Positions 4,784 to 48,219 of a DNA stretch of 64,000 bases are shown here, in pieces. Under the pieces are notes generated by a model that was given only the letters and a program-made list of their open reading frames with translations, was not told the DNA's origin and searched no databases. The stretch comes from Candidatus Eiseniibacteriota bacterium (GTDB lineage: Bacteria; Eisenbacteria; RBG-16-71-46): NCBI GenBank assembly GCA_963717935.1, contig CAVQXP010000002.1, forward strand, positions 352,001-416,000. Reading direction: 5' to 3'. The position numbers and the translations under genes are program-made. Within the stretch, counting starts at the first letter, position 1. The number at the start of each line of letters is the position of its first letter.

Positions 4784-6253
4784 TCATGGCCGCGCCGGTC
4801 CGCCCGCTTCGTCCGGCGCGTAACGGTACAGGTAGCGGGGCCAGCCGTGATTCCATCGCTTCGGCAGGCCCTGCAGCCCCGCGAACCGGTCCCCCAGATC
4901 GGCATCCAGCACGTAGTACGGACTCAGGATCCTCAGACAGGGGAGGACGTCGAGCGGGCGGTTCGTGAGGATGTAGGCCCTCCCCGGCGGGTGGATCGCG
5001 GGGGCCAGAGCGGCACGGACGGCCTGCGGCCCCTTGCCGCCGGCGCGCATCATGTCGTCCAGGGTGGTCCAGTGGGCCGCGGGGACGAACCGGTAGTCGC
5101 CCGGCAACTGCCCGATCCACGGCGCATACACGCTGCCCGGCAGGGCGCGGAGCATGCGGATGAGGGCCGCGTACTGATCGTCTGCATGCCGCGATGGGAT
5201 GACGCTCCTCGGGCTGTAGAGGAGCATCGCGAACGACAGGAAGAGCGCCAGCCGCTCGAGCCGGATGCCGCGCGCCGGCACGGGCCGCGCGCCGAGGGCA
5301 TGCAGCCCCAGGGCCCCGACCAGGATGGTCCAGACCCCGAGCGGGATGAAGACGTTGTCGGACGAGCCCGGGTCCAGCGCCCCCATGAAGGCGGTGAGGA
5401 CGGCGAACGGGAACTGGAAGTGCCAGGCGCTCAGCCTTCTCCGGTCCGTCCGCGCCAGATGGAGGATCAGGAGCACGGCCGAGGCGAGCAGGACGCCGTA
5501 ATACCTGGCGAAGAACATCAGCGGTCTGACGAACGTGCCCGAATCGAGCTGGCTCCAGCCCCGCGGCATCTCCCACGTGTAGTAGTGGAACCCGGGACCG
5601 AACAGCGCGGTCCCCGCGAAGATGTGGAGCGCGGGACCGAGCAGCAGCAGTGCCAGCCAGTACATCCACGAGCGCGCCCACCCCTCACGCCAGGTCAGGA
5701 ACAGGGCCCCGCCGAGGGCGAAGCAGGCGCCATGCTGCTTGAACCAGAATGAGGCGATCAGCAGGAGCAGGCCCGCCCACCTCCCGAGGCGCGAGCGGCC
5801 CTGATCGAGCAGCCAGGTCCCGAGCAGGGCGGTGAAGATCAGCCAGGAATCGGAGTGGGCCGTGTCCAGGTAGGCATCCATGGCGCGGTAGGCCGCCGCG
5901 AACAGCCCGGCGGTCAGGAGCCCCCACGACGAGGAGCCCGTCCTCCTGGCGACGACGAGGTAGAGGATCAGCGTGGAGCCCAGCGTGGCGAGGATGGAGA
6001 ACAGCCGCAGCGCGAACAGCCCCGGCCCCAGGAGCCAGGTCATGGGGAGGACCGCGAAGTAGTAGAGCGGGTTGTAGGCCAGCGCCACGAAACCGGACTG
6101 CACGGCGTCGTAGATCGGCTGGTGCCGCAGCGCCCGCAGGACGTGCTGCAGGACCGTGAATTCCATCAGGTCCAGGGTGAAGGGAAAGCGCGCGTGGGTG
6201 ACCCACAGGAACATCACGAACAGGATGTTCCCGGACGCCAGCGCTCCCAGCAT
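4784..6253 (-). CDS. GT-C-like polytopic membrane protein (putative glycosyltransferase); N-terminus may extend to ~6370
   Basis: FPFTLDLME, YNPLYY, D-T-A-H-S-D, and KQ after a TM helix. A hydrophobic in-frame extension (LRYWLALAAIASVLAV) lies upstream of the annotated Met. Confidence 0.65.
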   Translation of the reverse strand: MLGALASGNILFVMFLWVTHARFPFTLDLMEFTVLQHVLRALRHQPIYDAVQSGFVALAYNPLYYFAVLPMTWLLGPGLFALRLFSILATLGSTLILYLVVARRTGSSSWGLLTAGLFAAAYRAMDAYLDTAHSDSWLIFTALLGTWLLDQGRSRLGRWAGLLLLIASFWFKQHGACFALGGALFLTWREGWARSWMYWLALLLLGPALHIFAGTALFGPGFHYYTWEMPRGWSQLDSGTFVRPLMFFARYYGVLLASAVLLILHLARTDRRRLSAWHFQFPFAVLTAFMGALDPGSSDNVFIPLGVWTILVGALGLHALGARPVPARGIRLERLALFLSFAMLLYSPRSVIPSRHADDQYAALIRMLRALPGSVYAPWIGQLPGDYRFVPAAHWTTLDDMMRAGGKGPQAVRAALAPAIHPPGRAYILTNRPLDVLPCLRILSPYYVLDADLGDRFAGLQGLPKRWNHGWPRYLYRYAPDEAGGPARP

Positions 6254-6642
6254 CCAGGAGATCCCGCGGCTGATGCGGGCCCGGCGCCCGAGAGGCGACG
6301 CCTCGAGGACCGCGAGGACCGATGCGATGGCCGCCAGGGCCAGCCAATACCGGAGGGGGAGGTGCGTTCAGCGCTCCTTGGAGGCAGGTCGTGACCGGGC
6401 CGTCCGACGGGCGGCCCGCTGCGGTCCCGGGGAGGATGGGGCGAGCGCCGGCCCAAATCAAGCTGGCGTGCTTCGCCACGGGTGCCGACAATGGTATAAG
6501 GTGCGCTTGCGAACCGCCCCCGGGTCGCGGCCCGGGTTGCCGCCTGCCTTCCGTGCTCGCAGGGCCCGGGAGTCATCGTACCGGTAGAGTGGGATCTCGC
6601 GCGGCGGGCCGACCTCGCGGATCTCCACCGGGAGACTGATCC

Positions 6643-30199: not shown

Positions 30200-30854
30200 A
30201 TGACCGAGAACCGCTACATCGCCGTCGAGGGCGTGATCGGCGTGGGCAAGACGAGTCTCTCGAAGCTGCTCATCGGAGCGCCTCAAGGCGCAACTGGTGC
30301 TCGAGGAGGTCGAGGAGAACCCCTTCCTCAAGGACTTCTACAAGGACCGGGCGCGTTACGCGTTCCAGACCCAGATGCACTTCCTCTTCAGCCGCTACCA
30401 GCAACAGCGCAGCCTGCGGCAGACGGAGCTGTTCAGCGAACGCCTGGTCGCCGACTACCTGTTCCAGAAGGACCGCATCTTCGCGGGGCTGAACCTCTCG
30501 GACCGGGAGCTGGCGCTGTACGAGAAGCTGGTGGTCTGGCTCGAGCTGGACGTCGTGAAGCCCGACGTGGTGGTCTATCTGCAGGCGAGCTCCGACATCC
30601 TCATGGAGCGCATCGGCAAGCGTGGCCGGGCGTTCGAGAAGGACATGGACCGCGACTACATCAAGCAGCTCAACGAGGCCTACAACTACTTCTTCTTCCA
30701 CTACGTGGACGCGCCGCTGCTGGTGGTGAACACCAACGGGATCGACTTCGTGAACAACGCGGACGACTTCGAGGACCTGCTCCAGCGCATCGTGTCGCAC
30801 CGGCAGGGCACGGTCTATTACGCGCCGCTCGAGCGCGGGGCGGCCGGGTCGTGA
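30200..30854 (+). CDS. Deoxynucleoside kinase (frameshift ~30275)
   Basis: YIAVEGVIGVGKT P-loop, EENPFL..FY, FLFSRY, PDVVVYLQA. Confidence 0.9.
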
Positions 30855-31680
30855 GCGAGCCGAAGGGCGCGGGCCCCGGGCGCGGGCGCTGGACGGCGCC
30901 CGCCATCGCCGAGCTGAAGCGCCGCGGCGAGCTCATCGCCGTGGCGACCGCCTACGACTTCCCGACCGCGCGGCTCGCGGACGAGGCGGGCGTCGAGGTC
31001 GCTGCTGGTGGGCGACAGCCTGGGCACCGTGGTGCTGGGCTACGAGAGCACGCTGCCCGTCACCATGGCCGACATGCTGCACCACGTGAAGGCCGTGACG
31101 CGCGCACGCCCCGCCGCGCTGGTGGTGGCCGACATGCCCTTCCTGTCCTACCAGGCGAGCGTCGAGGAAGCGGTGCGCAACGCCGGGCGCTTCGTGCAGG
31201 AGGGCGGCGCCGACGCGGTCAAGCTGGAGGGCGGCGAGCGGGTCGCGCCGGCGGTGCGGCGCATCGTCGAGATCGGCATCCCGGTGATGGGGCACCTCGG
31301 GCTCACGCCCCAGTCGCTGCTCGCCTTCGGCGGCTACAAGGTGCAGGGGAGGGGCGAGGGCGAGGCCGAGCGCCTGATGCGGCGAGGCGCGGCTGCTGGA
31401 GCAGTGCGGCTGCTTCGCGCTGGTGCTCGAGGGCATCCCGGCCGCGCTGGGCGCGGCCGTGACGCGCGAGCTCGGCATCCCCACGATCGGCATCGGCGCC
31501 GGGGCGGCCTGCGACGGACAGGTGCTGGTGAGCCACGACCTGCTCGGCCTGACCCAGGGCCACGTGCCGAAGTTCGTGCGGCGTTACGCCGACCTGGCCG
31601 GGACCATGCGGGACGCGTTCGCGCGCTACGTGGCCGACGTCAAGGCGCGCCGCTTCCCGTCGGACGAGGAGTCGTATTGA
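30851..31680 (+). CDS. panB: 3-methyl-2-oxobutanoate hydroxymethyltransferase (frameshifted)
   Basis: [42 protein letters not shown]. Confidence 0.93.
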
Positions 31681-32575
31681 GCGCCCGCCGGTCGCGCCCG
31701 CCGGCCCGCCGGCCCGCGCTGCGTCGCGTCGCGAGCCCCGCGCGCGTGCATGCGCTGGTGGCCGGGCTGGAAGCGCGCCGGCCTGCGCGTGGCGTTCGTG
31801 CCCACCATGGGCGCGATCCACGAGGGGCACCTGAGCCTGGTGCGGCGCGCCCGCGCGGCGGCGGACCGCGTGGTGGCGAGCATCTTCGTCAACCCGCTGC
31901 AGTTCGGGCCGGGCGAGGACTTCGCGCGCTACCCGCGCCCCGTCCGCCGCGACCGCGACCTGCTGGCGGAGGCGGGCGTGGACCTGCTGTGGGAGCCGCG
32001 CGGCGCGGACCTCTACCCGCCCGGACACCGCACGCGCGTGAGGGTCGCGGGCCTGGGCGACGTGCTCGAGGGCGCCACGCGCCCCGGGCACTTCGACGGG
32101 CGTGACCACGGTGGTGCTCGTCCTGCTCGAGGTGGTGGCGCCGCACGTGCTGTGGCTCGGACAGAAGGACGCCCAGCAGGCGCTGCTGATCGAGCGCATG
32201 GTGCGCGACCTGCGCCTGCCGGTGAAGGTGCGGCGCGGCCCGACGGTGCGCGAGCCCGACGGGCTGGCGATGTCCTCGCGCAACGCCTACCTGTCGCCCG
32301 CGGAGCGCGCGCAGGCGGTGGCGCTGTCGCGCGGCCTGGCCGCGGCCCGCGCCGCGCTGGTGGCGGGCGAGCGCTCGGCGGCGCGCGTGGCGCGGGCGGT
32401 GCGCGCGGTGTGGCGCCGCCACCCGCTGGTGCGCGAGGACTACGTGGCGGTGGTGGACGCGCAGACGCTCGAGCCGGTGAAGGACGTGCGCGCGGCGCGC
32501 CGGCTGCTGGTCGCGGTGGCCGCGCGCGTAGGTCCCGCGCGGCTCATCGACAACTTCGAGTGGAGCCGGCGATGA
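31677..32575 (+). CDS. panC: Pantoate-beta-alanine ligase (frameshifted)
   Basis: [51 protein letters not shown]. Confidence 0.93.
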
Positions 32576-33216
32576 GCGCGCGGCGGGTGGCATCGGCGCG
32601 GCCACGACGCGGGACGGCAGAGCGGGCAACGGGCGGTGAGCCGAAACGCCTCCGGCCGGCCGCCCCGGCGGGCGCACGGGGCGCGCTCGAGCGGCTGTGG
32701 GCTCCGTGGCGGATGGCGTATGTCGGCCGGGCGCAGGAGCCGGCCGGTTGTCTGTTCTGCCGGGTGGCCCGCGCGCGCGCCGACCGGCCGCTCCTGGTCC
32801 TGGCGCGCCGGCCGCACGCCTTCCTGATGCTGAACCGCTACCCGTACAACGGCGGGCACCTGATGGTGGCGGTGCGCGAGCACCGGGCCTGCTTCGCGCG
32901 TCTCACGGCGGAGGAGCGCGCGGACCTGCTGGAGCTCGTGGGGCTTGCGGAACGGGCCCTGGAGACGGAGTATCACCCGCACGGCATGAACTTCGGCGTG
33001 AACGTCGGGCGCGTGGCCGGCGCCGGTTTCCCCGGGCATCTGCACATGCACGTGGTGCCGCGCTGGGACGGCGACACCAATTTCATGGCGGCGGTCGGCG
33101 AGACCCGCGTGCTCCCGGAGTCCCTGGCGCGGACCTGGATCCGTCTGCGCCGGGCCATCCGGATGCTCGAACGGGGGCCGGGCGGGCGACGGAGGGCGCG
33201 TGGCCCGAAGGGGTGA
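32572..33216 (+). CDS. HIT family hydrolase (Ap4A phosphorylase-like)
   Basis: LWAPWRMAY, CLFC, LNRYPYNGGHLM, HLHMHVVPRWDGDTNFM. Confidence 0.9.
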   Translation: MSARRVASARPRRGTAERATGGEPKRLRPAAPAGARGALERLWAPWRMAYVGRAQEPAGCLFCRVARARADRPLLVLARRPHAFLMLNRYPYNGGHLMVAVREHRACFARLTAEERADLLELVGLAERALETEYHPHGMNFGVNVGRVAGAGFPGHLHMHVVPRWDGDTNFMAAVGETRVLPESLARTWIRLRRAIRMLERGPGGRRRARGPKG

Positions 33217-35815: not shown

Positions 35816-36006
35816 TCAGGGCTCCCGGAACGGGCCGAAGCGATCGTGGAGGAGAGTGACCCGGCATTCTACCAGCCACCTCCGGCGCGCTCAACCAGCC
35901 GGTCCCGCCCCGGGCGGGTGCGGGAAACCGCGCATCCTCCGTTGCCTGCGTGGGCGGCGTGTGCTACCTCTCAGCCTGCATCGTTGATTCCGCCCGTGGA
36001 GGGCCG

Positions 36007-37122
36007 ATGAGCACGCGCAGCGAAGCCCCCGCCCGTCCGGCCGATTCGGAGCCCGCGCCGCGCCCGATCCCGTGGCCCACGCAGGTGCTGGACGCGCTGG
36101 AACAGGGGGTGGTGGCACTCGACCGTGAGCGCCGTGTCACCTACAACAACCGCCGCATCGAGGAGCTGTTCGCCATCGAGCCGGGCGGGCTGCTGGGGCT
36201 GCCGGCGTCGCGCCTGTTCCCCGGGGCCGACGCGCGCTGGCTGAAGGGCTCCTCGCGCGAGCCGCGCGAGTTCCGCATCGAAGCCGAGGGCCGCGAGTTG
36301 ACGCTCAAGGCCGAGTCCCTGCCGTTGCGCGACGAGGATGGCGCCCTGATGGGCTCGCTCGTGATGGTGGAGGCCACCTCCGAGAGCGAGGACGGCGAGT
36401 TCCAGAAGAACATCGACCGTCTGGTCTCGCTGGGCGAGTTGTCGGCCTACGTGGCCCACGAGATCCGCAACCCGCTGACAGGCATCCGCACCACCGTCCA
36501 GTACGTGGGCTCGAAGTTCAAGCCCAACGACGCCCGGCGCGAGGATCTCGAGGACGTCATCAAGGAGCTGGACCGCATCGAGCAGATCATCACCGGCCTG
36601 CTCATGTTCGCCCGGCCGCCCGCGGCCCGCCCGCAGTCGTGCGACCTGCGCCAGGTGCTCGAGAAGACGCTGGACCTGCTCGAGCTGCAGCTGGGGGACG
36701 CGCAGGTGACGCTCTCCAAGGATTACGCCGAGGTGACCGAGGAGATCCCGCTCGTCTACGCGGACCCCGACCTCACGCAGCAGGTGTTCCTCAACCTCTG
36801 CCTGAACGCCGTGCAGGCCATGCCCGAAGGGGGCGAGCTGCACGTCATGCTGGGGGTGCGGCGCTACCGCACGCGGCGCTCGGTGGTGGACGTCTCCTTC
36901 CGGGACACCGGCGTGGGCATCCCCAAGGATCTCATGGAGAAGATCTTCGACCCCTTCTTCACGACGCGTTCCATGGGCACCGGGCTGGGCCTGCCCATCT
37001 CGCTGCAGATCGTGCGCGAGGTGGGCGGCGTGATCACCGCCAAGAACAACGCGGGCGGTGGCGCGACGCTGCGCGTCTCCTTCCCGGTCCCGGCGGAGCC
37101 GCCGGGACCGCCGGAGGACTAG
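36007..37122 (+). CDS. Cytoplasmic PAS-domain sensor histidine kinase (NtrB/AtoS-like)
   Basis: PAS (GVVALD...YNN), H-box AHEIRNPL, N-box NLCLNAVQAM, G1 DTGVGI, F/G2 IFDPFFTT..GTGLGL. No TM helix. Confidence 0.92.
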   Translation: MSTRSEAPARPADSEPAPRPIPWPTQVLDALEQGVVALDRERRVTYNNRRIEELFAIEPGGLLGLPASRLFPGADARWLKGSSREPREFRIEAEGRELTLKAESLPLRDEDGALMGSLVMVEATSESEDGEFQKNIDRLVSLGELSAYVAHEIRNPLTGIRTTVQYVGSKFKPNDARREDLEDVIKELDRIEQIITGLLMFARPPAARPQSCDLRQVLEKTLDLLELQLGDAQVTLSKDYAEVTEEIPLVYADPDLTQQVFLNLCLNAVQAMPEGGELHVMLGVRRYRTRRSVVDVSFRDTGVGIPKDLMEKIFDPFFTTRSMGTGLGLPISLQIVREVGGVITAKNNAGGGATLRVSFPVPAEPPGPPED

Positions 37123-37126
37123 GACC

Positions 37127-38501
37127 GTGAAGAACACCGTGCTCGTCGTGGACGACGAGACTCCTCATCCGCAAGTCGCTGTCCCGCGTGCTGCGCGAGA
37201 AGGGCTACCTGGTCGAGGGGGCGAGCACCGGGGCGGAGGGTCTCGAGAAGGTCGAAAGCGTGCGGCCGCAGGTCATCATCCTCGACATGCGCCTGCCGGA
37301 CACCGACGGCCTCTCCGTGCTGCGGCGCGTACGCCAGTTGGATGCGCTGGTCCAGGTCATCGTCATCACCGCCTACGGCGACGTCCAGTCGGCGGTCGAG
37401 GCCATGAAGCTCGGAGCCTGCGATTTCCTCCGGAAGCCGTACGAGAAGGAGGACATCGAGATGGCGGTCGAGGCTGCGGCCCGCACGTTCCGCCAGGCCA
37501 ACGAACTCGACCTCTACCGCCGCAAGGAGAAGCGCCGGTACACGGGGGAGGAGATCATCGGCACCTCCGTCCCCATGCAGGAGGTGCGGGATCTCATCGA
37601 GAAGGTGGTGCGCAGCCAGGCGACCTCCGTGTTCATCACCGGGGAGAGCGGGACCGGCAAGGAACTGGTCGCGCGGGCGATCCACTACCGCAGCGATCGT
37701 GCCCAGGCGCCGCTCATGGAGGTCAACTGCTCCTCGTTCCAGGAGACCCTGCTCGAGAACGAGCTGTTCGGGCACGAGCGCGGCGCCTTCACGGACGCCG
37801 GGGACCTGAAGAAGGGCCTGGTCGAGCTTTGCGACGGCGGCACGCTCTTCCTGGACGAGGTGGCGGACATGTCGATGCCGACCCAGGCCAAGCTCCTGCG
37901 CTTCATCGACTACCGGAACTTCAAGCGGGTGGGCGGGGCCGAGGACATCAGCGTGGACATCCGCATCGTGGCCGCCTCGAACAAGGATCTCGAGAGCGAC
38001 ATCCGCACCGGGCGCTTCCGCAGCGACCTGTACTTCCGCCTCAAGGTCGTGAGCATCCACCTGCCTCCGCTCAACGAGCGCGGTGACGACATCCTGCTGC
38101 TGGCGCGGCACTTCCTGCGCGAGTTCTCCCGCCAGTTCCAGAAGGACTTCCGCGACATCACGCCCGACGCGGCGCGCCTGCTGCTGTCCTACCGCTGGCC
38201 GGGCAACGTTCGCGAGCTGCGCAACCTCATCGAGCGCGTCGTGCTCCTCGAGGATGGGCGGCAACTGGAACTCGATCACCTGCCGGCGGAGGTCGCGGGC
38301 CGGCGCCTGGCCTCCGACCACTCGATCGCGCTGCCCACGCTCGCGCAGATCGAAGCCGACCACATCGCCGAGGTGCTGCGGCTCACCGCGGGGAACAAGA
38401 GCCGCGCCGCGCGCGTCCTCGGCATCTCGCGGCAGGGTCTCATCGAGAAGCTGCGGCGCTCGCGCGTGCTCGACGAGGGTGGTGGTCGTCAAGTATCTTG
38501 A
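37127..38501 (+). CDS. Sigma54-dependent response regulator (REC-AAA+-Fis HTH); frameshift ~37160
   Basis: VLVVDDE, LDMRLPD, GESGTGKE, ELFGHERGAFTDA, LFLDEV, FRSDLYFRL, WPGNVRELRN, GNKSRAARVLGISR. Confidence 0.94.
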
Positions 38502-38547
38502 CACCCACAAGGAAGTGGACACCGTCCTGCAATCTATTGTATTGCAG
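38488..38547. promoter_or_regulatory. Putative upstream activator sequences (palindromes) for a sigma54 activator
   Basis: GTCAAG-TAT-CTTGAC (38488-38502), a degenerate copy 18 bp downstream (CACAAGGAAGTGGACAC, 38506-38522), and CTGCAAT-N7-ATTGCAG (38527-38547), in the most AT-rich stretch of the window. Confidence 0.55.
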
Positions 38548-38713
38548 TTGTTTGCGATTCACGTTCCGGCTAACTCACCATTAAATTGACGGTTAGAACG
38601 GTTCGAGCCAGTCGAAAACGGCAAGGTGCGAGCCTGGGTAGAACCCACGGCTATTTTTTATTGCCTTGTACTGCAATGTCTTACGCGATGAATGACGCTG
38701 CCTCCCTGCCGTG

Positions 38714-38729
38714 TGGAATGGAACCTGCT
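38714..38729 (+). promoter_or_regulatory. Putative sigma54 (-24/-12) promoter
   Basis: TGGAATGGAACCTGCT has GG and GC at the canonical spacing of TGGCACGNNNNTTGC. It is preceded by an A/T tract and IHF-like CTGCAAtgtcTTA (38671-38683). Confidence 0.6.
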
Positions 38730-38739
38730 TCCGAGTTCG

Positions 38740-39294
38740 GGCGAGGCCAAGTGGGGTTCTCGGGAACTCCGCCGGGCCGCCGGGGCCGCGCCCAAGGCGG
38801 CGGCCAACAGTGCCCCAGCGAGAAGTTGGGGACTCCACCATCGAGATCAGATCCAAGGAGGTGATCAGGAATGGCAGCGAAGAAGAAGGTCGCCAAGAAG
38901 AAGGTCGCCAAGAAGAAGGTCGCCAAGAAGAAGAAGTAAGCCCGTCTCAGGACCTGGCACGTCCTCAGGGGATTGGTCGGCGATGCCGGCCAATCCCCGA
39001 TTGCTGGGGGAGCGGCTCTCGACCCGGCGGGGAGGTCCAGGGGAGAGGATGCGCGCCGGCTGCCACGCCCGTTCGCGGGAGCGACCCTCGCTCCGCCTGG
39101 AGTGGAAGCCGATCGACCGGCGGGTCGGCCTTACCTGAGGCCACCGGTCGCGCGAGAGAGAACGCACCGCGGGACGGTGACCTGACGGTGCGGGTTTGGG
39201 GCTGGAGGTTTCCGTGCTAGGGCTGGCCGTCTTCCTCCAGTGACCCGCGACGGTTCGCTCATGGATGGGCGGGCCGTTCGCGTCTTCTGAGGAT
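38740..39294 (+). ncRNA. Candidate structured RNA (family not recognised) surrounding the small Lys-rich ORF
   Basis: At least nine predicted hairpins, several with G-U pairs on the + strand (38751-38772, 38813-38831, 38968-38998, 39250-39277), plus possible long-range pairings. Confidence 0.45.
38871..38939 (+). CDS. 22-aa Lys/Ala/Val-rich basic peptide MAAKKKVAKKKVAKKKVAKKKK (histone H1-tail/protamine-like)
   Basis: AAGGAGGTGA Shine-Dalgarno (38855-38864), ATG 38871, TAA 38937-38939. All 13 Lys codons are AAG. Built from the 15-bp unit AAGAAGAAGGTCGCC x3. Confidence 0.8.
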   Translation: MAAKKKVAKKKVAKKKVAKKKK

Positions 39295-39394
39295 CCCCCG
39301 CAGCGTTCCCTGCAGCGAGCCTTGCCGCCGGTGGCGCGTGCTATAGTCGTGCAGCTCGCCACCGCCGCGTGCTCTTCGCCTGCCCGAGGCCCCG

Positions 39395-42184
<2,790 letters not shown>

Positions 42185-42218
42185 ACGCCGCCCATCCCGG
42201 GCGCAGACTCCCGCCGCC

Positions 42219-43680
42219 ATGGACGCCATCTCCGCCGCCGGGCTCGAGCGGCTCGACGACTTCCGCTGGATGATCCCGCGCGCGGGCGCGATGCGCGTGC
42301 CCGGGGTCATCTTCGCGGACCGGCCGCTGCTCGAGCAGATCCTCGGCCGACCGCACCTGCGAGCAGATCCGCAATGCCGCGACCCTGCCGGGCATCCTCG
42401 AGGCCTCGATCGCCATGCCCGACGCCCACTGGGGCTACGGGCTGCCGGTCGGCGGCGTGGTGGCCTTCGATCCCGGACGAGGGCGTGGTCTCGCCGGGCG
42501 CGGTGGGCTACGACATCGGCTGCGGCGTGCGCCTGATGCGCACCCGCCTCGACGCGCGCCGACCTGGCCCCGCAGGTGGAGGCCCTGGCCGACGCGCTCT
42601 ACCGCGAGGTGCCCGTGCGGCGTGGGCTCCACCGGGCGCGGTGCGGCTCAAGCCCGGGCGATCTGGACCGGGTGCTGCGCGACGGGCCGCGCTGGGCGGT
42701 CGGGCGCGGCCTGGGCACCGCGGGCGACCTCGAGCACTGCGAGGAGGCCGGCGTGCTGGCCGACGCCGACCCGGGCGCGGTGAGCGAGGCCGCGAAGGAC
42801 CGCGGCCGCGACCAGCTCGGCACGCTGGGCTCGGGCAACCACTTCCTCGAGGTGCAGGAGGTGGACGAGATCCACGACGAGGACGGCGGCGCGGGCGCTC
42901 GGGCTCGAGCGGGGCATGGTCACCGTGATGATCCACTGCGGCTCGCGCGGGCTGGGCCACCAGGTCTGCACCGACCACGTGCGCGACGTCGCGCGCAAGC
43001 TCACCGGCTGGGGCATCGACGCTGCCGGACCGGCAGCTCGCCTGCGCCCCGCTGCGCTCGCCCGAGGCCACGGCCTACCTGGGCGCGATGCGCGCGGCCG
43101 CGAACTTCGCCTGGGCGAACCGGCAGTGCATCGCCGACGAGGTGCGGCGCGCCTTCGAGCGCACGCTGCGCCGCAGCCACGAGTCGCTTGGACCTCACGC
43201 TGGTCTACGACGTGGCGCACAACATCGCCAAGTTCGAGCGCCACCGGACCGCGGCGGGCACGGTGCGCTGCCTGGTGCACCGCAAGGGCGCGACGCGGGC
43301 CTTCCCGGCGGGCCACCCCGACGTGCCCGCGGCCTACCGTGCGGTGGGCCAGCCGGTGCTGGTGCCCGGGCGACATGGGGCGCTACTCGTTCGTGCTGGT
43401 CGGGCGTCCGGGCTCGATGGCGCACGCCTTCGGCTCCACCTGCCACGGCGCCGGACGCCGCATGAGCCGCACCCAGGCGGTGCGCGAGACGCGCGGCCGC
43501 GACCTGGTCGCCGAGCTGCGCGAGGCCGGCGTCGCCGTGCGCTCCAAGGGCCGCGACACGCTGCGCGAGGAGACCAGCGAGGCCTACAAGGACGTGGCCG
43601 ACGTCGTGCGCGTGGTCGAGGGCGCGGACCTGGCGAGGCGCGTGGCGCGGCTCAGGCCGTTCCTGGTGGTCAAGGGCTGA
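42219..43680 (+). CDS. rtcB: RNA 2',3'-cyclic phosphate/5'-OH ligase RtcB (multiple frameshifts)
   Basis: [65 protein letters not shown]-terminal VKG. Confidence 0.92.
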
Positions 43681-43754
43681 CTGCTACGCGAAGCCCCGCC
43701 CCGGTGCTCCGGGACGGGGCCTCGTTCGACTCGGGGCGCCCTGCGAACCCAGCC

Positions 43755-44591
43755 TCAGGCCTTCGTGATCGTCCGTGGCGGCGCCGCCGGGATGTCCTCG
43801 CGCCGCTTGCCGCAGGGCTTGTCCGCCAGCCTGGAGGCCGGCTTGCGCACGCGCAGCCGCAGCAGGTCGAAGCACGAGGTCCTGCTTCATCAGCTGGATC
43901 GCCTTGGCCGGGTCCACCCCCTTGGGGCAGACCTGCGAGCACTCGCCCGCGAAGTGGCAGCGCCACGGTCCGCTGCCCACGGAGAGCAGCTCGCGCCGCC
44001 GCGCGAACCCGCCGTCGCGCGTGTCGCTGTTGTAGCGGTGGGCCTGTGCCAGCGGCATCGGCCCGGAGTACTTCGGGTCCGTTGCCACCGTCGGGCATGC
44101 CGCCATGCAGCAGCCGCACTTGATGCAGTAGCTGAACTGCAGGTAGCGCTCCAACTCGTGCGGCGTCTGCCAGTACTCCCCGGTCGGGTCGTTCTGCTCC
44201 TTGACGTCCTCGCGGATCAGGTAGGGCATCAGCTCGCGGTGGGCCTCGAACATCAGGTGCAGGTCGGGCACGAGGTCCTTGATGATGCCGAAGTTGGGCA
44301 GCGGCCCCACCGCGACGACGTCGCTCTGCAGTTCGGAGATCTGCGTGTTGCAGGCCAGTCGCGGGCGGCCGTTGATGAGCATGCCGCACGAGCCGCAGAT
44401 GCCCATGCGACACGAGGAGCGCCACGCCAGGGTCGGCGCGAACAACTCCTTCACCTTCCACAGGCCGTCGAGCACGGTCATGCCGGGCAGTGACGTCGAT
44501 CTTGTACGTGCTCCCAGTGCGGCTCGCGGTCCTTGCCGGGCTCGTAGCGGCGGAGGTGGAAGACCACCTGCTTCAGGCTCGTGTCGGCCAT
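43755..44591 (-). CDS. sdhB: Succinate dehydrogenase/fumarate reductase iron-sulfur subunit (frameshifts near both ends)
   Basis: SCRMGICGSCG, LAC, CIKCGCCMAACP, CHFAGECSQVCP. Confidence 0.9.
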
Positions 44592-44990: not shown

Positions 44991-45419
44991 TCACAGGAAG
45001 AAGTCGAGGCCACCCCAGACCGCGAGCGCGCCCGCGATCAGCATCGCCGCGATCGCGAGCGGCCGCTGCCGGCCGACCGAGGTCGCGTAGGGGTAGATGG
45101 GTTCGATGGGCCTGCCGACCGCAAAGCCGAGCTCGATCAGCACGAGCCGGACGCCGTTGACGGCGTGGAAGGCGAAGGCGGCGAAGACCAGGTACTCACC
45201 GGCCTTGAAGACCGGGCCCTCGACGGCGTCCATCGCCCGCTCCCAGCTCCCGGGGCCGAGGACCCGGGTCGAGGTGACGAAGATGTGCATCAGGAAGTAG
45301 GTCAGCAGGCCGAGCCCGGTGAGGCGGTGGAGCGTGTACAGGTAGCGCTCGAGGCCCCAGCGGCCGCCGCCGACCCACCCCCGGATGCCCAGCCGATTCG
45401 GATGTGCGCGGGATTCCAT
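44991..45419 (-). CDS. sdhC: Succinate dehydrogenase cytochrome b subunit C
   Basis: YTLHRLTG, FLMHI, FHAVNGVRLVLIE. Confidence 0.85.
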   Translation of the reverse strand: MESRAHPNRLGIRGWVGGGRWGLERYLYTLHRLTGLGLLTYFLMHIFVTSTRVLGPGSWERAMDAVEGPVFKAGEYLVFAAFAFHAVNGVRLVLIELGFAVGRPIEPIYPYATSVGRQRPLAIAAMLIAGALAVWGGLDFFL

Positions 45420-45433
45420 GATCTCCTCCGGGG

Positions 45434-47150
45434 CTAGTACTTGCGCTCGACCGGCTGCCACATGTCGACGGTCACGGACTTGTACTCGAGCCGCGGTCCG
45501 GTCCCGGTGTGGAAGGCCAGCGTGTGCTTGAGCCAGTTCACGTCGTCGCGCACGGCGAAGTCGCGCCGGGCGTGGGCGCCGCGTGATTCCTGCCGCTTCA
45601 AAGCCCCGGCCACCGTCACCTCGGCCAGGTCCACGAGGTTCTCCAGCTCGAGCGCGTGGATGAGGTTCGAGTTGTAGACCCGCGACTGGTCCGCCACGGG
45701 CGCCTGCTCGGAGCGGGCGCGGATCTCCTGGATCTGCTTCAGCGCCTTCGCCAGGTCGTCGCCGTTGCGGAACACGCCGACGCACGAGTCCATCGTCGCG
45801 CGCAGCTGCCGCCGCAGCTCGTACATGTTCTCGCTGCCGCGCCGCGCCAGCACCGACAGGACGTGTTCCTCGGCGCCGCGCGCCTTCTCCGCCGGCAGCG
45901 GCGCGGCCTGGCCCAGCCCGGGCAGTGCCGCCGCGATCTCCCGGCCGGTGATGCCGCCCCACACCAGGCACTCCCCGGTCGAGTTCGAGCCCAGCCGGTT
46001 GGCGCCGTGCAGCGACACGCAGGCCGCCTCGCCCGCCGCCCAGATGCCGGCGACGCGCGTGAGCCCGTTGATGTCGGTCTCGATGCCGCCCATCGAGTAG
46101 TGGGCCACCGGGCGGATCGGGATCGGCTTGATGATCGGGTCGAGGCCGAGGAACTTGATGGTCACCTCGCGGATCAGCGGCAGCCGCGTGTTGATGCGGT
46201 CCGCGCCGAGGTGGGTGAGGTCGAGCTCGAGGTAGTCCTGGCCGTCGGGGGTCTTGAAGCCGCGCCCGGCGAGGATCTCCTCGGTCTCGGCGCGCGAGAC
46301 CATGTCGCGCGGGGCGAGCTCGATCAGCTTGGGCGCGTACTTCTCCATGAAGCGCTCGCCCTTGTTGTTGCGCAGGTAGCCGCCCTCGCCGCGGCAGGCC
46401 TCGGTCATCAGGATGCCGTTGGGCACCAGGCCCGGTGGGGTGGAACTGCAGGAACTCCATGTCCTCGAGCGGCAGGCCGGCCCGGTAGGCCATGGCCATG
46501 CCGTCGCCGGTGACGGTCTGCGAGTAGGTCGTGAAGCCGTAGAGCGTGCCGCCGCCGCCCGAGGCGATGAGCAGCGCCTTGCCGCGGATCGCCACGGTCT
46601 CGCCGGTGCCGGTGTCCAGGCCGACCAGGCCCGCGAAGCGGCCGTCGTGGACCAGGATGTCGGTGACGAAGAACTCGTCGTAGCGCGTGAAGTTGCGGTA
46701 GCGCTGGAGCTGGTCGTAGAGCGTCTGCATCTCGAAGAAGCCGGTCTTGTCGGCCGCCAGGGTCGCCCGCGGGTAGCTGTGCCCGCCGAACGGGCGCTGG
46801 GCGATGTGGCCCTCGGCGTCGCGCGTCCAGGGGATGCCCCAGTGGTCGAGCTGGCGGATCTCCTTCGGGATGGTGTCGACGAAGGTCCGCACCACGTCCT
46901 GGTCGGCCAGGAAGTCGGAGCCCTTCACCGTGTCCCAGGCGTGCAGCTCGATCGAGTCGCCCAGGTCGGTGCGCAGCACGGCGGCGGTGCCGCCCTCGGC
47001 GCAGACCGAGTGGGCGCGCATGAGCTGCACCTTGGAGACGATGCCGATGTCGACCTGGCCCTCGAGACGTCTGGAGATCTCCACGGCGGCGCGCAGGCCG
47101 GCCAGCCCGGCTCCCAGGATGACCACATCGTGCTTCAGTTCACGATCCAT
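45434..47150 (-). CDS. sdhA: Succinate dehydrogenase/fumarate reductase flavoprotein (frameshift ~46430)
   Basis: GAGLAG, RAHSVCAEGG, DTVKGSDFL, QFHPTG, TEACRGEGG, HYSMGG, HGANRLGSNS, ESRGAH, ERKY. Confidence 0.95.
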
Positions 47151-47299
47151 GAAGGAACCTCGTTCGCGACTACGGTGGGCAGGGATTCCCGGTGGGTGTG
47201 GCGCCGCAGTCTGCCACAAAACCCCGCGCATCATACAACCCGACTCGCATCGGACGAAATCGGAGTCCGCGCCCGCGGAGCGCGCGGACGTCCGGCGGG

Positions 47300-48219
47300 T
47301 CAACCGGCTGGCGGTCTGGCGCTTCCGCCAGCGGACCGGGGAGCGGCCGCTCGCGCGCCACCGTGGCCGCCTCGAGCGGCCCGAGCACGCCGTCCTCGAC
47401 CACCACGCCGCGCAGCAGCTCCAGCGGCACCATCTCGGCGTGCACGTTGCGCGGCCGCACGCCCGGCGGGCGGCGCGTCCCATACCTCCGCGGTCGGCCG
47501 CTCCTCGATCCGCAGCGCCGCGGTCGTCACCGGCAGGAACTTGCGGCGCGGCGCGAGCACGTAGACCGGCACCGAGTGCTCGCGTGCCGCGAGCGCCGCG
47601 GCGTAGCCGCCCACCGCCACGATGGCGCCGCGGTCGGTGACCGCATCGGCCCCGAGCCAGAGCGCCGCGGTCTGCGAGAGCAGCATCGGGAGCGCCGCGT
47701 CCACCACGAGCCAGGTCGGCACGCCGGCCAGGCCCAGCGCGGCCGCCAGCGCGCGGCCGTGCAGGAGCGGCCGCCCTTCGCCCACCAGCGCGCGCGGGCC
47801 GCGGCCACGGTCGTGAAGCTCGAGCAGGGCCGCGCGCACGGTCGTGCCGCAGGAGAGCGTGGAGACCCACGCGCCGCGCTCGGTCAGGAGCGCGCTCGCG
47901 GTGCGCGCCACCGCCGCCCGCGCGCCCTCGAGGTCGGCGCGCTCCGCGGCGCACGACCGTGCGATCTGGACCCGCAGCTCGGGCGGCGGCTCACCGCGAT
48001 GCAGGCCCGCGTCGGCCACGTCGAGCGCGCGCGCGGCGAGCTGGTGGACCAGCCCGTTGACCGCGTAGGCGGCCTGTTCGCCGCGCAGCCGGACGAGCAG
48101 GGCGGCACGCAGCGCCGCCGCATCGACCGACGCGTCGACGGCCGCCCAGCGCTCGAGGCGAGCCAGGAAGCCAAGGGCCTCCCGCTCGCGCCCGGCTCAT
48201 GCACCGGCGCGTCCGCCAT
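47300..48219 (-). CDS. eIF-2B alpha/beta/delta-family protein (ribose-1,5-bisphosphate/MTR-1-P isomerase-like), frameshifted; 3' end uncertain
   Basis: STLSCGTTV, LVGEGRPLLHGR, VVDAAL, WLGADAV, ALAAREHSVPVYV, RKF, NVHAEMVP. Confidence 0.75.

Follow-up and report, generated by a model that had tools for sequence, protein, structure and literature searches.

A predicted sigma-54-dependent micro-protein message and a separate conserved two-hairpin RNA element between an NtrC-type activator gene and uvrA in Candidatus Eisenbacteria

Several RNAs are known to have a dual function, encoding a peptide and also acting as a regulatory RNA, among them SgrS/SgrT, RNAIII/hld and SR1/SR1P, and open reading frames (ORFs) of 22 codons are missed by gene callers. 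The other described systems closest to the locus considered here are the sigma-54 promoters of NtrC-family activators, the lysine-rich histone H1-like proteins, the leader-peptide attenuators and the hairpins recognized by CsrA/Rsm regulators. To our knowledge, no csrA gene is known for the phylum Eisenbacteria. The CsrA/Rsm recognition consensus is given as A/U-CANGGANG-U/A as quoted in PMC6849547. The locus is positions 38740–39294 of a 64-kb stretch of a Candidatus Eisenbacteria genome (the window; all coordinates are those of the whole window, + strand), for which a reading made from the sequence alone had proposed a single hairpin-dense RNA of ~550 nt. Our analysis indicates that this region probably consists of the mRNA of a sigma-54-dependent micro-protein and a separate conserved two-hairpin RNA element, and is not one 550-nt non-coding RNA (ncRNA).

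The protein encoded just 5′ of the region, an NtrC-type activator (enhancer-binding protein, EBP), was searched against species-representative genomes, giving the 80 loci to which all comparisons are limited. Loci L001–L016 were 74–92 % identical to the activator and L017–L023 were 53–59 % identical. Both sets are Candidatus Eisenbacteria (23 loci), with L003, L009, L011 and L021, titled only ‘bacterium’ or ‘uncultured bacterium’, grouped there by identity; the other 57 loci, with ~40 % identity, belong to other phyla and are paralogues or orthologues. Counts out of 17 refer to the window plus the 16 close loci, and features 3′ of the ORF are counted out of 16, as the contig of L016 ends within the ORF. 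The whole hairpin-rich stretch lies in a gap of 893 nt (38502–39394) between two gene sets on the + strand, and comparison of this gap with L001–L023 using blastn identified two conserved blocks. The first, 38856–38998, was matched wholly or largely in L001–L015, and the second, ~39187–39285, was detected by blastn in four loci, while 38999–39186 matched nothing in the 23 loci. The match in L016 spanned 38713–38937 and was 83.6 % identical. The features assigned to the region were as follows.

38714–38728, + strand: putative sigma-54-type promoter TGGAATGGAACCTGC, with GG at −24 and GC at −12 and a predicted transcript start at ~38739–38741.
38740–38870, + strand: predicted 5′ untranslated region (UTR) of ~130 nt, with hairpins at 38751–72, 38775–805 and 38813–31 and a small hairpin presenting the Shine–Dalgarno (SD) sequence.
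38855–38866, + strand: extended SD sequence AAGGAGGTGATC, very strong.
38871–38939, + strand: micro-ORF of 22 codons plus stop, MAAKKKVAKKKVAKKKVAKKKK, found in 17/17 sequences.
38950–38964, + strand: invariant 15-mer GGACCTGGCACGTCC, in RNA form a 4-bp stem (GGAC/GUCC) with a 7-nt loop (CUGGCAC).
38968–38998, + strand: 14-bp GC-rich hairpin (−27.4 kcal/mol), a candidate terminator or 3′ stabilizer.
38999–39196, + strand: lineage-specific spacer with neither conservation nor excess structure.
39197–39287, + strand: conserved two-hairpin element of ~90 nt, found in 14/16 sequences, just 5′ of the candidate uvrA promoter.
39202–39240, + strand: hairpin 1 of the element, with arms CTGGAGG/CCTCCAG and a conserved 25-nt loop.
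39246–39282, + strand: hairpin 2 of the element, with apex CATGGATG (39260–39267), a hexaloop ANGGAN closed by an invariant C–G pair.

Confidence in this modular reading is high, and confidence in the functions suggested below for the peptide, the 15-mer and the element is low.

The small ORF had been correctly placed in an unstructured purine-rich part of the region, being unpaired in the centroid structure, but the ORF is not incidental, as it is present in 17/17 sequences and evolves as a protein-coding gene. The window peptide has 22 residues, 14 of them Lys (64 %), and the type across the window and the close loci is MA(A)KKK-AA-KKK-xT-KKK-AA-KKKK over 21–27 codons. Lengths of 21, 22 (13 sequences), 23 and 27 codons were observed, every change being a multiple of three (in L016 the contig stops before the ORF does). 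Where the ORF has 22 codons (13 sequences), half of these codons (11/22) vary, and eight of these encode Ala, Val, Gly, Thr or Pro. The Lys codons are always AAG except in the divergent L002, where Lys replaces Ala at codon 3 and two Lys-to-Arg changes, from AAG to CGC and so at all three bases, preserve the charge. As these changes retain charge, selection appears to act on the peptide itself, and we have high confidence, from its pattern of variation, that the micro-ORF is a translated gene. In the window, a 15-nt unit, AAGAAGAAGGTCGCC, occurs three times in tandem within the micro-ORF (38882–38926, encoding KKKVA three times), with GT, VT or AT instead at the middle position in the relatives. 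The window peptide may therefore have arisen or been homogenized by repeat slippage. An exact look-up of seven peptide variants among ~15 billion predicted proteins found none of them.

Further relatives of the peptide may be present in the deeper Eisenbacteria. In L017–L021, the order is EBP, sigma-54 promoter, a receiver-only response regulator and a K/R-rich repeat protein with a strong ribosome-binding site. The receiver-only regulator (PF00072, E 3.4e-21 at 5691–6149 of L017, with equivalents in L018–L021) is absent in the clade of the window. The K/R-rich proteins of these five loci have 43, 101, 227, 96 and >68 residues respectively, and in L020 uvrA directly follows the gene. The 227-residue protein of L019 matched Pfam HC2 at E 1e-7 and 32.7 bits, below the cut-off of 40. 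L022 and L023 had no K/R-rich gene at this position, and among the 57 non-Eisenbacteria loci a K-rich ORF was found downstream in only one, where it is apparently spurious. We infer that these lysine-rich polycations could form a signal-controlled family specific to the phylum, with the 22-residue peptide as its shortest member. Composition hints that the family might bind nucleic acids, a suggestion in which we place low confidence.

The message is predicted to be transcribed from a promoter of the sigma-54 type. The GG-N10-GC pattern was found 104–163 nt 5′ of the ORF in 16/17 sequences, with a first hexamer of TGGCAC in 12, TGGCAT in two, TGGTAT in L016 and TGGAAT in the window; L002 has CGGCAC…TGC. 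Counting both strands of the window, there are 100 instances of a loose form of the pattern (~1 per kb per strand) and just three of a strict form in the same 128 kb, so the recurrence of the pattern at one position is not explained by chance. The distance from the activator stop codon to the promoter is 212–217 nt in ten sequences. The flanking genes and the other putative regulatory sites are listed below.

35950–37122, + strand: PAS/HisKA/HATPase_c histidine kinase gene, 5′ of the gap, assigned by domain search.
37188–38501, + strand: NtrC-type activator (EBP) gene, with Response_reg, Sigma54_activat (E 2.6e-64), AAA_lid_14 and HTH_8.
38498–38522, + strand: two GACAC-type boxes, TTGACAC (38498–38504) and TGGACAC (38516–38522), candidate EBP sites (upstream activating sequences).
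38527–38547, + strand: hairpin resembling a terminator, with a T-rich tail, 3′ of the EBP gene, from a consensus scan.
38586–38595, + strand: third box TTGACGGTTA, at −126 from the promoter and inside a low-GC patch (38500–38700).
39339–39347, + strand: extended −10-like TGCTATAGT, a candidate uvrA promoter; TG then TAnnnT recurs at the equivalent place in relatives.
39395, + strand: TTG start of a uvrA-like ABC ATPase gene, 3′ of the gap.

The first box overlaps the stop codon of the EBP gene. Measured from the promoter TGG, the first two boxes are at −214 (13/16 sequences) and −196 (15/16), and the third is at −125 to −127 (15/16). An A/T-rich run separates the boxes from the promoter, and the GC content of 38500–38700 is 0.485 vs ~0.70 in the flanks. 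This layout of boxes and promoter, as read from the sequence, is the usual architecture of an enhancer-dependent promoter. The EBP would bind these boxes and activate the promoter, and sigma-54 control of the micro-ORF is proposed with moderate confidence. The gene order of kinase, EBP, micro-ORF and uvrA is conserved in L001–L014.

Between the predicted transcript start and the ORF, the relatives also have a hairpin near the start, for which the evidence is weak. The sequence GGAGGTGA is conserved 4–8 nt ahead of the start codon in 17/17 sequences. In L003, L008–L011 and L014, ACGUCC (ACAUCC in L008) lies 5–8 nt 5′ of the SD sequence, extended to CACGUCC in L009–L011 and L014. The invariant 15-mer has ACGUCC as its 3′ half, and in the minimum-energy structures of L009 and L010 the 5′ UTR copy pairs back onto the SD sequence.

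The 3′ side of the ORF is marked by the 15-mer and the GC-rich hairpin. The 15-mer is exact in 16/16 sequences that reach it, each with a single copy, and no further copy occurs in the window or across the 80 loci. It follows the stop codon at 8, 9, 10, 11, 14 or 16 nt, and because this distance varies the 15-mer is not coding. RNAalifold gave it four base pairs around a 7-nt loop, a hairpin for which the alignment holds no covariation information because the 15-mer is invariant. In every copy it sits 1–5 nt before the post-ORF hairpin, in which five of ten consensus pairs show compensatory changes. A T-rich tail (at least 5 T in 10 nt) follows this hairpin in 9/16 sequences, and 38968–38998 was not called as an intrinsic terminator in a consensus scan of the window.

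The 15-mer might instead act as double-stranded DNA, either as a dyad operator (GGACnTG-N-CAnGTCC) or as a −24 decoy that attracts sigma-54 or the activator. Six of its seven symmetric positions are palindromic, and an invariant run of 15 nucleotides points to a protein-binding site more readily than to a 4-bp hairpin. It also contains the −24-like CTGGCACG, which matches the −24 consensus of sigma-54. Its place 8–16 nt after the stop codon and directly before a hairpin is, however, typical of an RNA 3′ element, and the lack of a −12 GC in all 16 copies means that it is not a promoter. Further, the distant L019 retains GGAC and GGCACGTCC around an inserted 27-nt hairpin, just 5′ of its terminator. 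This insertion favours an RNA stem, since a DNA dyad would be broken by it. A role as a DNA site is the less favoured view and rather unlikely.

Three other candidate roles for the 15-mer were rejected. As a second sigma-54 promoter it would need the −12 GC that no copy has. As an anti-SD mimic pairing with the ribosome-binding site, its duplex energy was no better than that of shuffled motifs in most of the 17 sequences, with the fraction of shuffles as good ranging from 0.007 to 0.74 and exceeding 0.1 in 13/17. Kissing of its loop with the loop of hairpin 1 was likewise unsupported: eight copies gave fractions of 0.10–0.88, and the window, L008–L011 and L015 were nominally better than shuffles (0.007–0.09).

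The two-hairpin element was found in 14 of the 16 sequences that span the interval between ORF and uvrA, being absent from L007 and L012, and all 14 copies fold into the same pair of hairpins. A covariance model of the element (R1) scored these copies at 60–94 bits, and the next best match in 243,658 bases (window plus L001–L023) had only 14.9 bits (E 2.7), which shows that the element is single-copy and syntenic. A dispersed repeat of the REP or MITE kind was rejected on the same search, which found only the 14 syntenic copies, and the 15-mer is single-copy too. In the R1 alignment, 88.1 % of cells pair vs 78.2 % in shuffles, and covariation was 0.390 vs 0.230±0.019, with 0/500 shuffles as high. 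When partners were slid by one column, pairing fell to 49–57 %. For hairpin 1, the arms were left out of register by MAFFT and were registered by hand, which favours pairing; 98/98 cells then pair, in 12 distinct arm combinations and with 12 G–U cells. Shuffling arms among sequences, a control that covers covariation only, gave 81.5±3.0 and reached 98 in 0/2000 cases. In hairpin 2, 93.8 % of cells are paired and 7/11 pairs have changed on both sides. On the complementary strand, the G–U pairs of the element would become A–C mismatches, which means that the + strand is the one read as RNA; the sequence-only reading had argued likewise.

The element ends 20–66 nt before the TG-TAnnnT motif of uvrA, and the gap between ORF stop and uvrA varies from 110 to 896 nt among the relatives, with whole genes inserted in L004–L006. 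In L005 (2235–2681) and L006 (5833–6339), the inserted gene encodes an AdoMet decarboxylase (speH-like; Pfam AdoMet_dc, E 3.6e-27) and lies between the post-ORF hairpin and the element, with its last codons inside hairpin 1 and its stop codon in the loop. Because this gene ends in the element, the element appears to act as the 3′ end of upstream transcription. In L004 (~6040–6600), an extra gene between the element and uvrA encodes a signal-peptide-like N-terminus and coiled-coil-like ‘QIKAVR’ repeats. In L020, a weak R1 match (12.8 bits, E 6.1) at 6453–6551, just 5′ of uvrA, may be a diverged copy or chance. The possibility that the spacer of the window is itself a decayed AdoMet decarboxylase gene gained no significant support, as tblastn against the L005 protein gave only E 2.6 at 39085–39201, which is not significant. 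The spacer may be transcribed by read-through.

The loop of hairpin 2 raises a second alternative, that the element is its own unit (a small RNA or a 3′ UTR module) whose CANGGANG hexaloop titrates or recruits a CsrA/Rsm-type regulator and is not a mere terminator. The apex is CANGGANG in 14/14 copies, within a hexaloop with an invariant closing C–G pair, and so equals the core of the Rsm consensus as quoted in PMC6849547. CAGGAYG also occurs in the loop of hairpin 1 in five copies, ~40 nt 5′, and a second GGA site is present in 7/14 copies overall; the tail of hairpin 2 is poor as a terminator in most copies. The window copy, however, has one site only, its hairpin 1 loop reading AGGG without GGA, and the flanking A/U…U/A of the consensus is not retained, the 3′ flank in the window being G. 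No promoter is visible 5′ of the element, which in L005 and L006 overlaps the end of a coding gene, and the match was noticed post hoc and serves as a lead only. Such a role is doubtful, and slightly less probable than that of the 15-mer as DNA.

In an improbable third alternative, the micro-ORF encodes a leader peptide that senses lysine, and ribosome stalling on the 14 Lys codons would control termination at 38968–38998 and thereby the downstream uvrA or, in L005 and L006, the AdoMet decarboxylase gene. A short ORF with 64 % of one amino acid and a strong hairpin 29 nt beyond it would suit such a leader, and the window hairpin lacks a U tail, so that read-through could be regulated. Against this, no antiterminator complementary to the 5′ arm of the hairpin was found, either by reading the sequence or in the folds. 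The downstream genes are not for lysine biosynthesis and uvrA has its own promoter-like element. Moreover, the K/R-rich proteins of 43–227 residues in the deeper relatives are not leaders, and the K-to-R changes, which retain charge, suggest that the peptide itself is selected.

The folding signal was modular. Over 38740–39294 (555 nt), the + strand had a minimum free energy of −287 kcal/mol and a z-score of −3.83, with 0/100 dinucleotide shuffles as good, and the − strand had a z-score of −1.25, with 11/100 as good. The strand asymmetry that the sequence-only reading had drawn from G–U pairs is thus real, because the + strand beats its shuffles and the − strand does not. Block-wise z-scores indicated that the excess is not spread over the 550 nt and is confined to the 5′ UTR (38741–38870; −2.76 on the + strand, −1.16 on the − strand), the motif and hairpin (38940–39005; −4.65 and −2.76) and the element (39197–39287; −3.74 and −2.95). 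In the spacer, 39006–39100 was less structured than shuffles on the + strand (z +1.77) and 39101–39196 had a z-score of −1.73, with 11/200 shuffles as good.

The nine stems that had been listed are all complementary at their coordinates, with no mismatches and eight G–U pairs, including the three G–U pairs noted for 39250–61/39266–77. Two long-range pairs had been proposed as well, bringing the total to ten G–U pairs; their complementarity stands, and they are absent from the centroid structure. Both of them, and three spacer stems (39078–94, 39108–29 and 39163–92, the sequence of which is common to no relative among the 23 loci), lack comparative support because a partner sits in unshared sequence. 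Selection for RNA structure on the + strand, as suggested, is supported in the 5′ hairpins, the post-ORF hairpin and the element, where covariation and + strand G–U pairs were found; the alignment of homologues gave covariation in the last two. The boundaries were also well chosen, 38740 being the predicted sigma-54 transcript start and ~39290 the end of the last conserved hairpin. The absence of a known RNA family was borne out: Rfam 15 gave no matches in the whole window at the gathering score, and at E≤10 nothing consistent and only chance-level matches in 38450–39450 and two relatives, the best sub-threshold match being a 29-nt hairpin look-alike (23.4 bits vs a threshold of 40).

What fails is the unity of the stretch, as its central ~200 nt are neither conserved nor structured and its best-conserved core is the coding micro-ORF. 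A single structured ncRNA with a functional global fold, long-range pairs and an incidental ORF would account for the + strand folding energy, the complementarity, the coincident boundaries and the lack of an Rfam family, but is highly improbable given a central 200 nt that is unconserved in 23 loci and folds no better than shuffles, a distance between conserved blocks that varies widely among relatives, long-range partners in unconserved sequence and an ORF that evolves as coding.

Several points weigh against the reading of a sigma-54-dependent message and a separate element. The start of the transcript, its end and any read-through are all predictions. The window −24 hexamer, TGGAAT, is degenerate, being two positions off the TGGCAC of 12 relatives, and the peptide matched no Pfam or NCBIfam family (none at E≤1). 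In the window, the post-ORF hairpin is followed by just three T among ten nucleotides and so lacks a U tail, and a T-rich tail follows hairpin 2 in only 2/14 copies; neither is a textbook terminator. The reading also leaves the 15-mer and the hairpin 1 loop unexplained. Finally, the split uvrA of the window may reflect a decaying locus or pseudogene, or indel errors in the assembly. This uvrA-like gene (39395–42273) is broken by at least three frame changes relative to the intact UvrA of L003, to which it aligns in frames 2, 3, 1 and 2 at 39410–39727, 39729–40238, 40054–41973 and 41891–42169; L001, L002, L003 and L007 have uvrA as single ORFs of 925–986 aa. Elsewhere in the window, at 30200–33216, 42576–44123 and 44991–47954, there are long ORFs with partial Pfam matches or with unrelated domains joined; for example, one matches the RtcB profile over positions 69–169 of 426, one has Pantoate_ligase (positions 14–122 of 268) followed by HIT, and one of 987 aa holds FAD_binding_2 together with Sdh_cyt. 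This suggests further frame disruptions or spurious high-GC ORFs. A sigma-70 consensus scan found no full −35/−10 promoter for the uvrA-like gene.

With these points weighed, the favoured reading of a regulated micro-protein message and a separate element suggests the following course of events. The kinase would activate the EBP, which would bind the three GACAC-type boxes at their fixed distances and fire the promoter at 38714–38728. A transcript beginning near 38740 would carry the hairpin-rich 5′ UTR and the very strong ribosome-binding site, and would be translated into the 22-residue, 14-Lys peptide. The 15-nt mini-hairpin and the strong GC hairpin could then close or stabilize the message. 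As there is no U tail in the window, transcription may run past the post-ORF hairpin, and part of it probably continues through the non-conserved spacer to reach the two-hairpin element, which ends just before the uvrA promoter. The invariant CANGGANG loop of hairpin 2 makes it likely that this is a 3′ module that binds a protein and insulates. For the peptide, the most likely role is that of a nucleic-acid- or ribosome-binding polycation, which would be a minimal form of the K/R-rich, histone H1-like proteins of 43–227 aa encoded at the equivalent position in the deeper Eisenbacteria.

A bolder extension of this model is a dual-function, phylum-specific RNA that yields a polylysine-like peptide, the smallest in a lineage of H1-like polycations, and also presents in its 3′ part two protein-recognition hairpins, namely the 15-mer and a 90-nt module with an invariant CANGGANG hexaloop that captures a CsrA/Rsm-type regulator. 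We regard this as unlikely; were it true, one two-component signal would reprogramme nucleic-acid packaging and global translation jointly.

The peptide is apparently the target of a complete two-component and sigma-54 circuit that is conserved across an uncultured phylum of soil and groundwater. If so, it would be a clear example of a polycationic micro-protein under signal control, and the relatives would provide a natural length series of 21–227 residues for finding the minimal functional unit of an H1-like polycation. The invariant 15-mer and the covarying two-hairpin element would be two new RNA motifs without an Rfam family, and with the element, CsrA-type recognition hairpins may prove to occur in a phylum from which none is known. 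More generally, a ‘hairpin-dense RNA’ can be an mRNA plus its regulatory ends. Literature searches found nothing linking a lysine-rich small protein with sigma-54; among the matches listed, there was nothing on RNA or small proteins in Eisenbacteria and nothing relevant on histone H1-like proteins with sigma-54.

Compared with described systems, the locus resembles other NtrC-family sigma-54 promoters in its GG-N10-GC pattern, adjacent kinase, activator of receiver, AAA+ sigma-54-interaction and Fis-type helix–turn–helix (HTH) domains, spaced boxes and intervening A/T-rich stretch. It differs in that its target is a 22-codon ORF and not an enzyme or transporter operon, and in the degenerate −24 of the window. 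The likeness to the lysine-rich histone H1-like proteins (chlamydial Hc1/Hc2; Pfam HC2, PF07382) lies in a low-complexity sequence rich in K and A(V,T) with short repeats, and in the weak HC2 match of the syntenic L019 protein, which may reflect composition only; unlike these proteins, the window peptide has 22 residues and no family match, and its DNA binding is only presumed. Leader-peptide attenuators share a short ORF dominated by one amino acid and a strong hairpin 3′ of it, but here there is no antiterminator and there are no cognate biosynthetic genes, and there is selection on charge and there are long relatives. Dual-function RNAs likewise place a short ORF in an unpaired stretch between conserved hairpins, whereas in the present case any target pairing or regulatory role of the RNA part is presumptive and the two structured blocks may be on separate transcripts. 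The hexaloop of hairpin 2, with CANGGANG in all 14 copies, is similar to the CsrA/Rsm hairpins of the consensus cited above; in contrast to sponge RNAs with their many sites, one or two are present here, and the element does not cover a ribosome-binding site but is found at the 3′ end of its unit, 5′ of a promoter.

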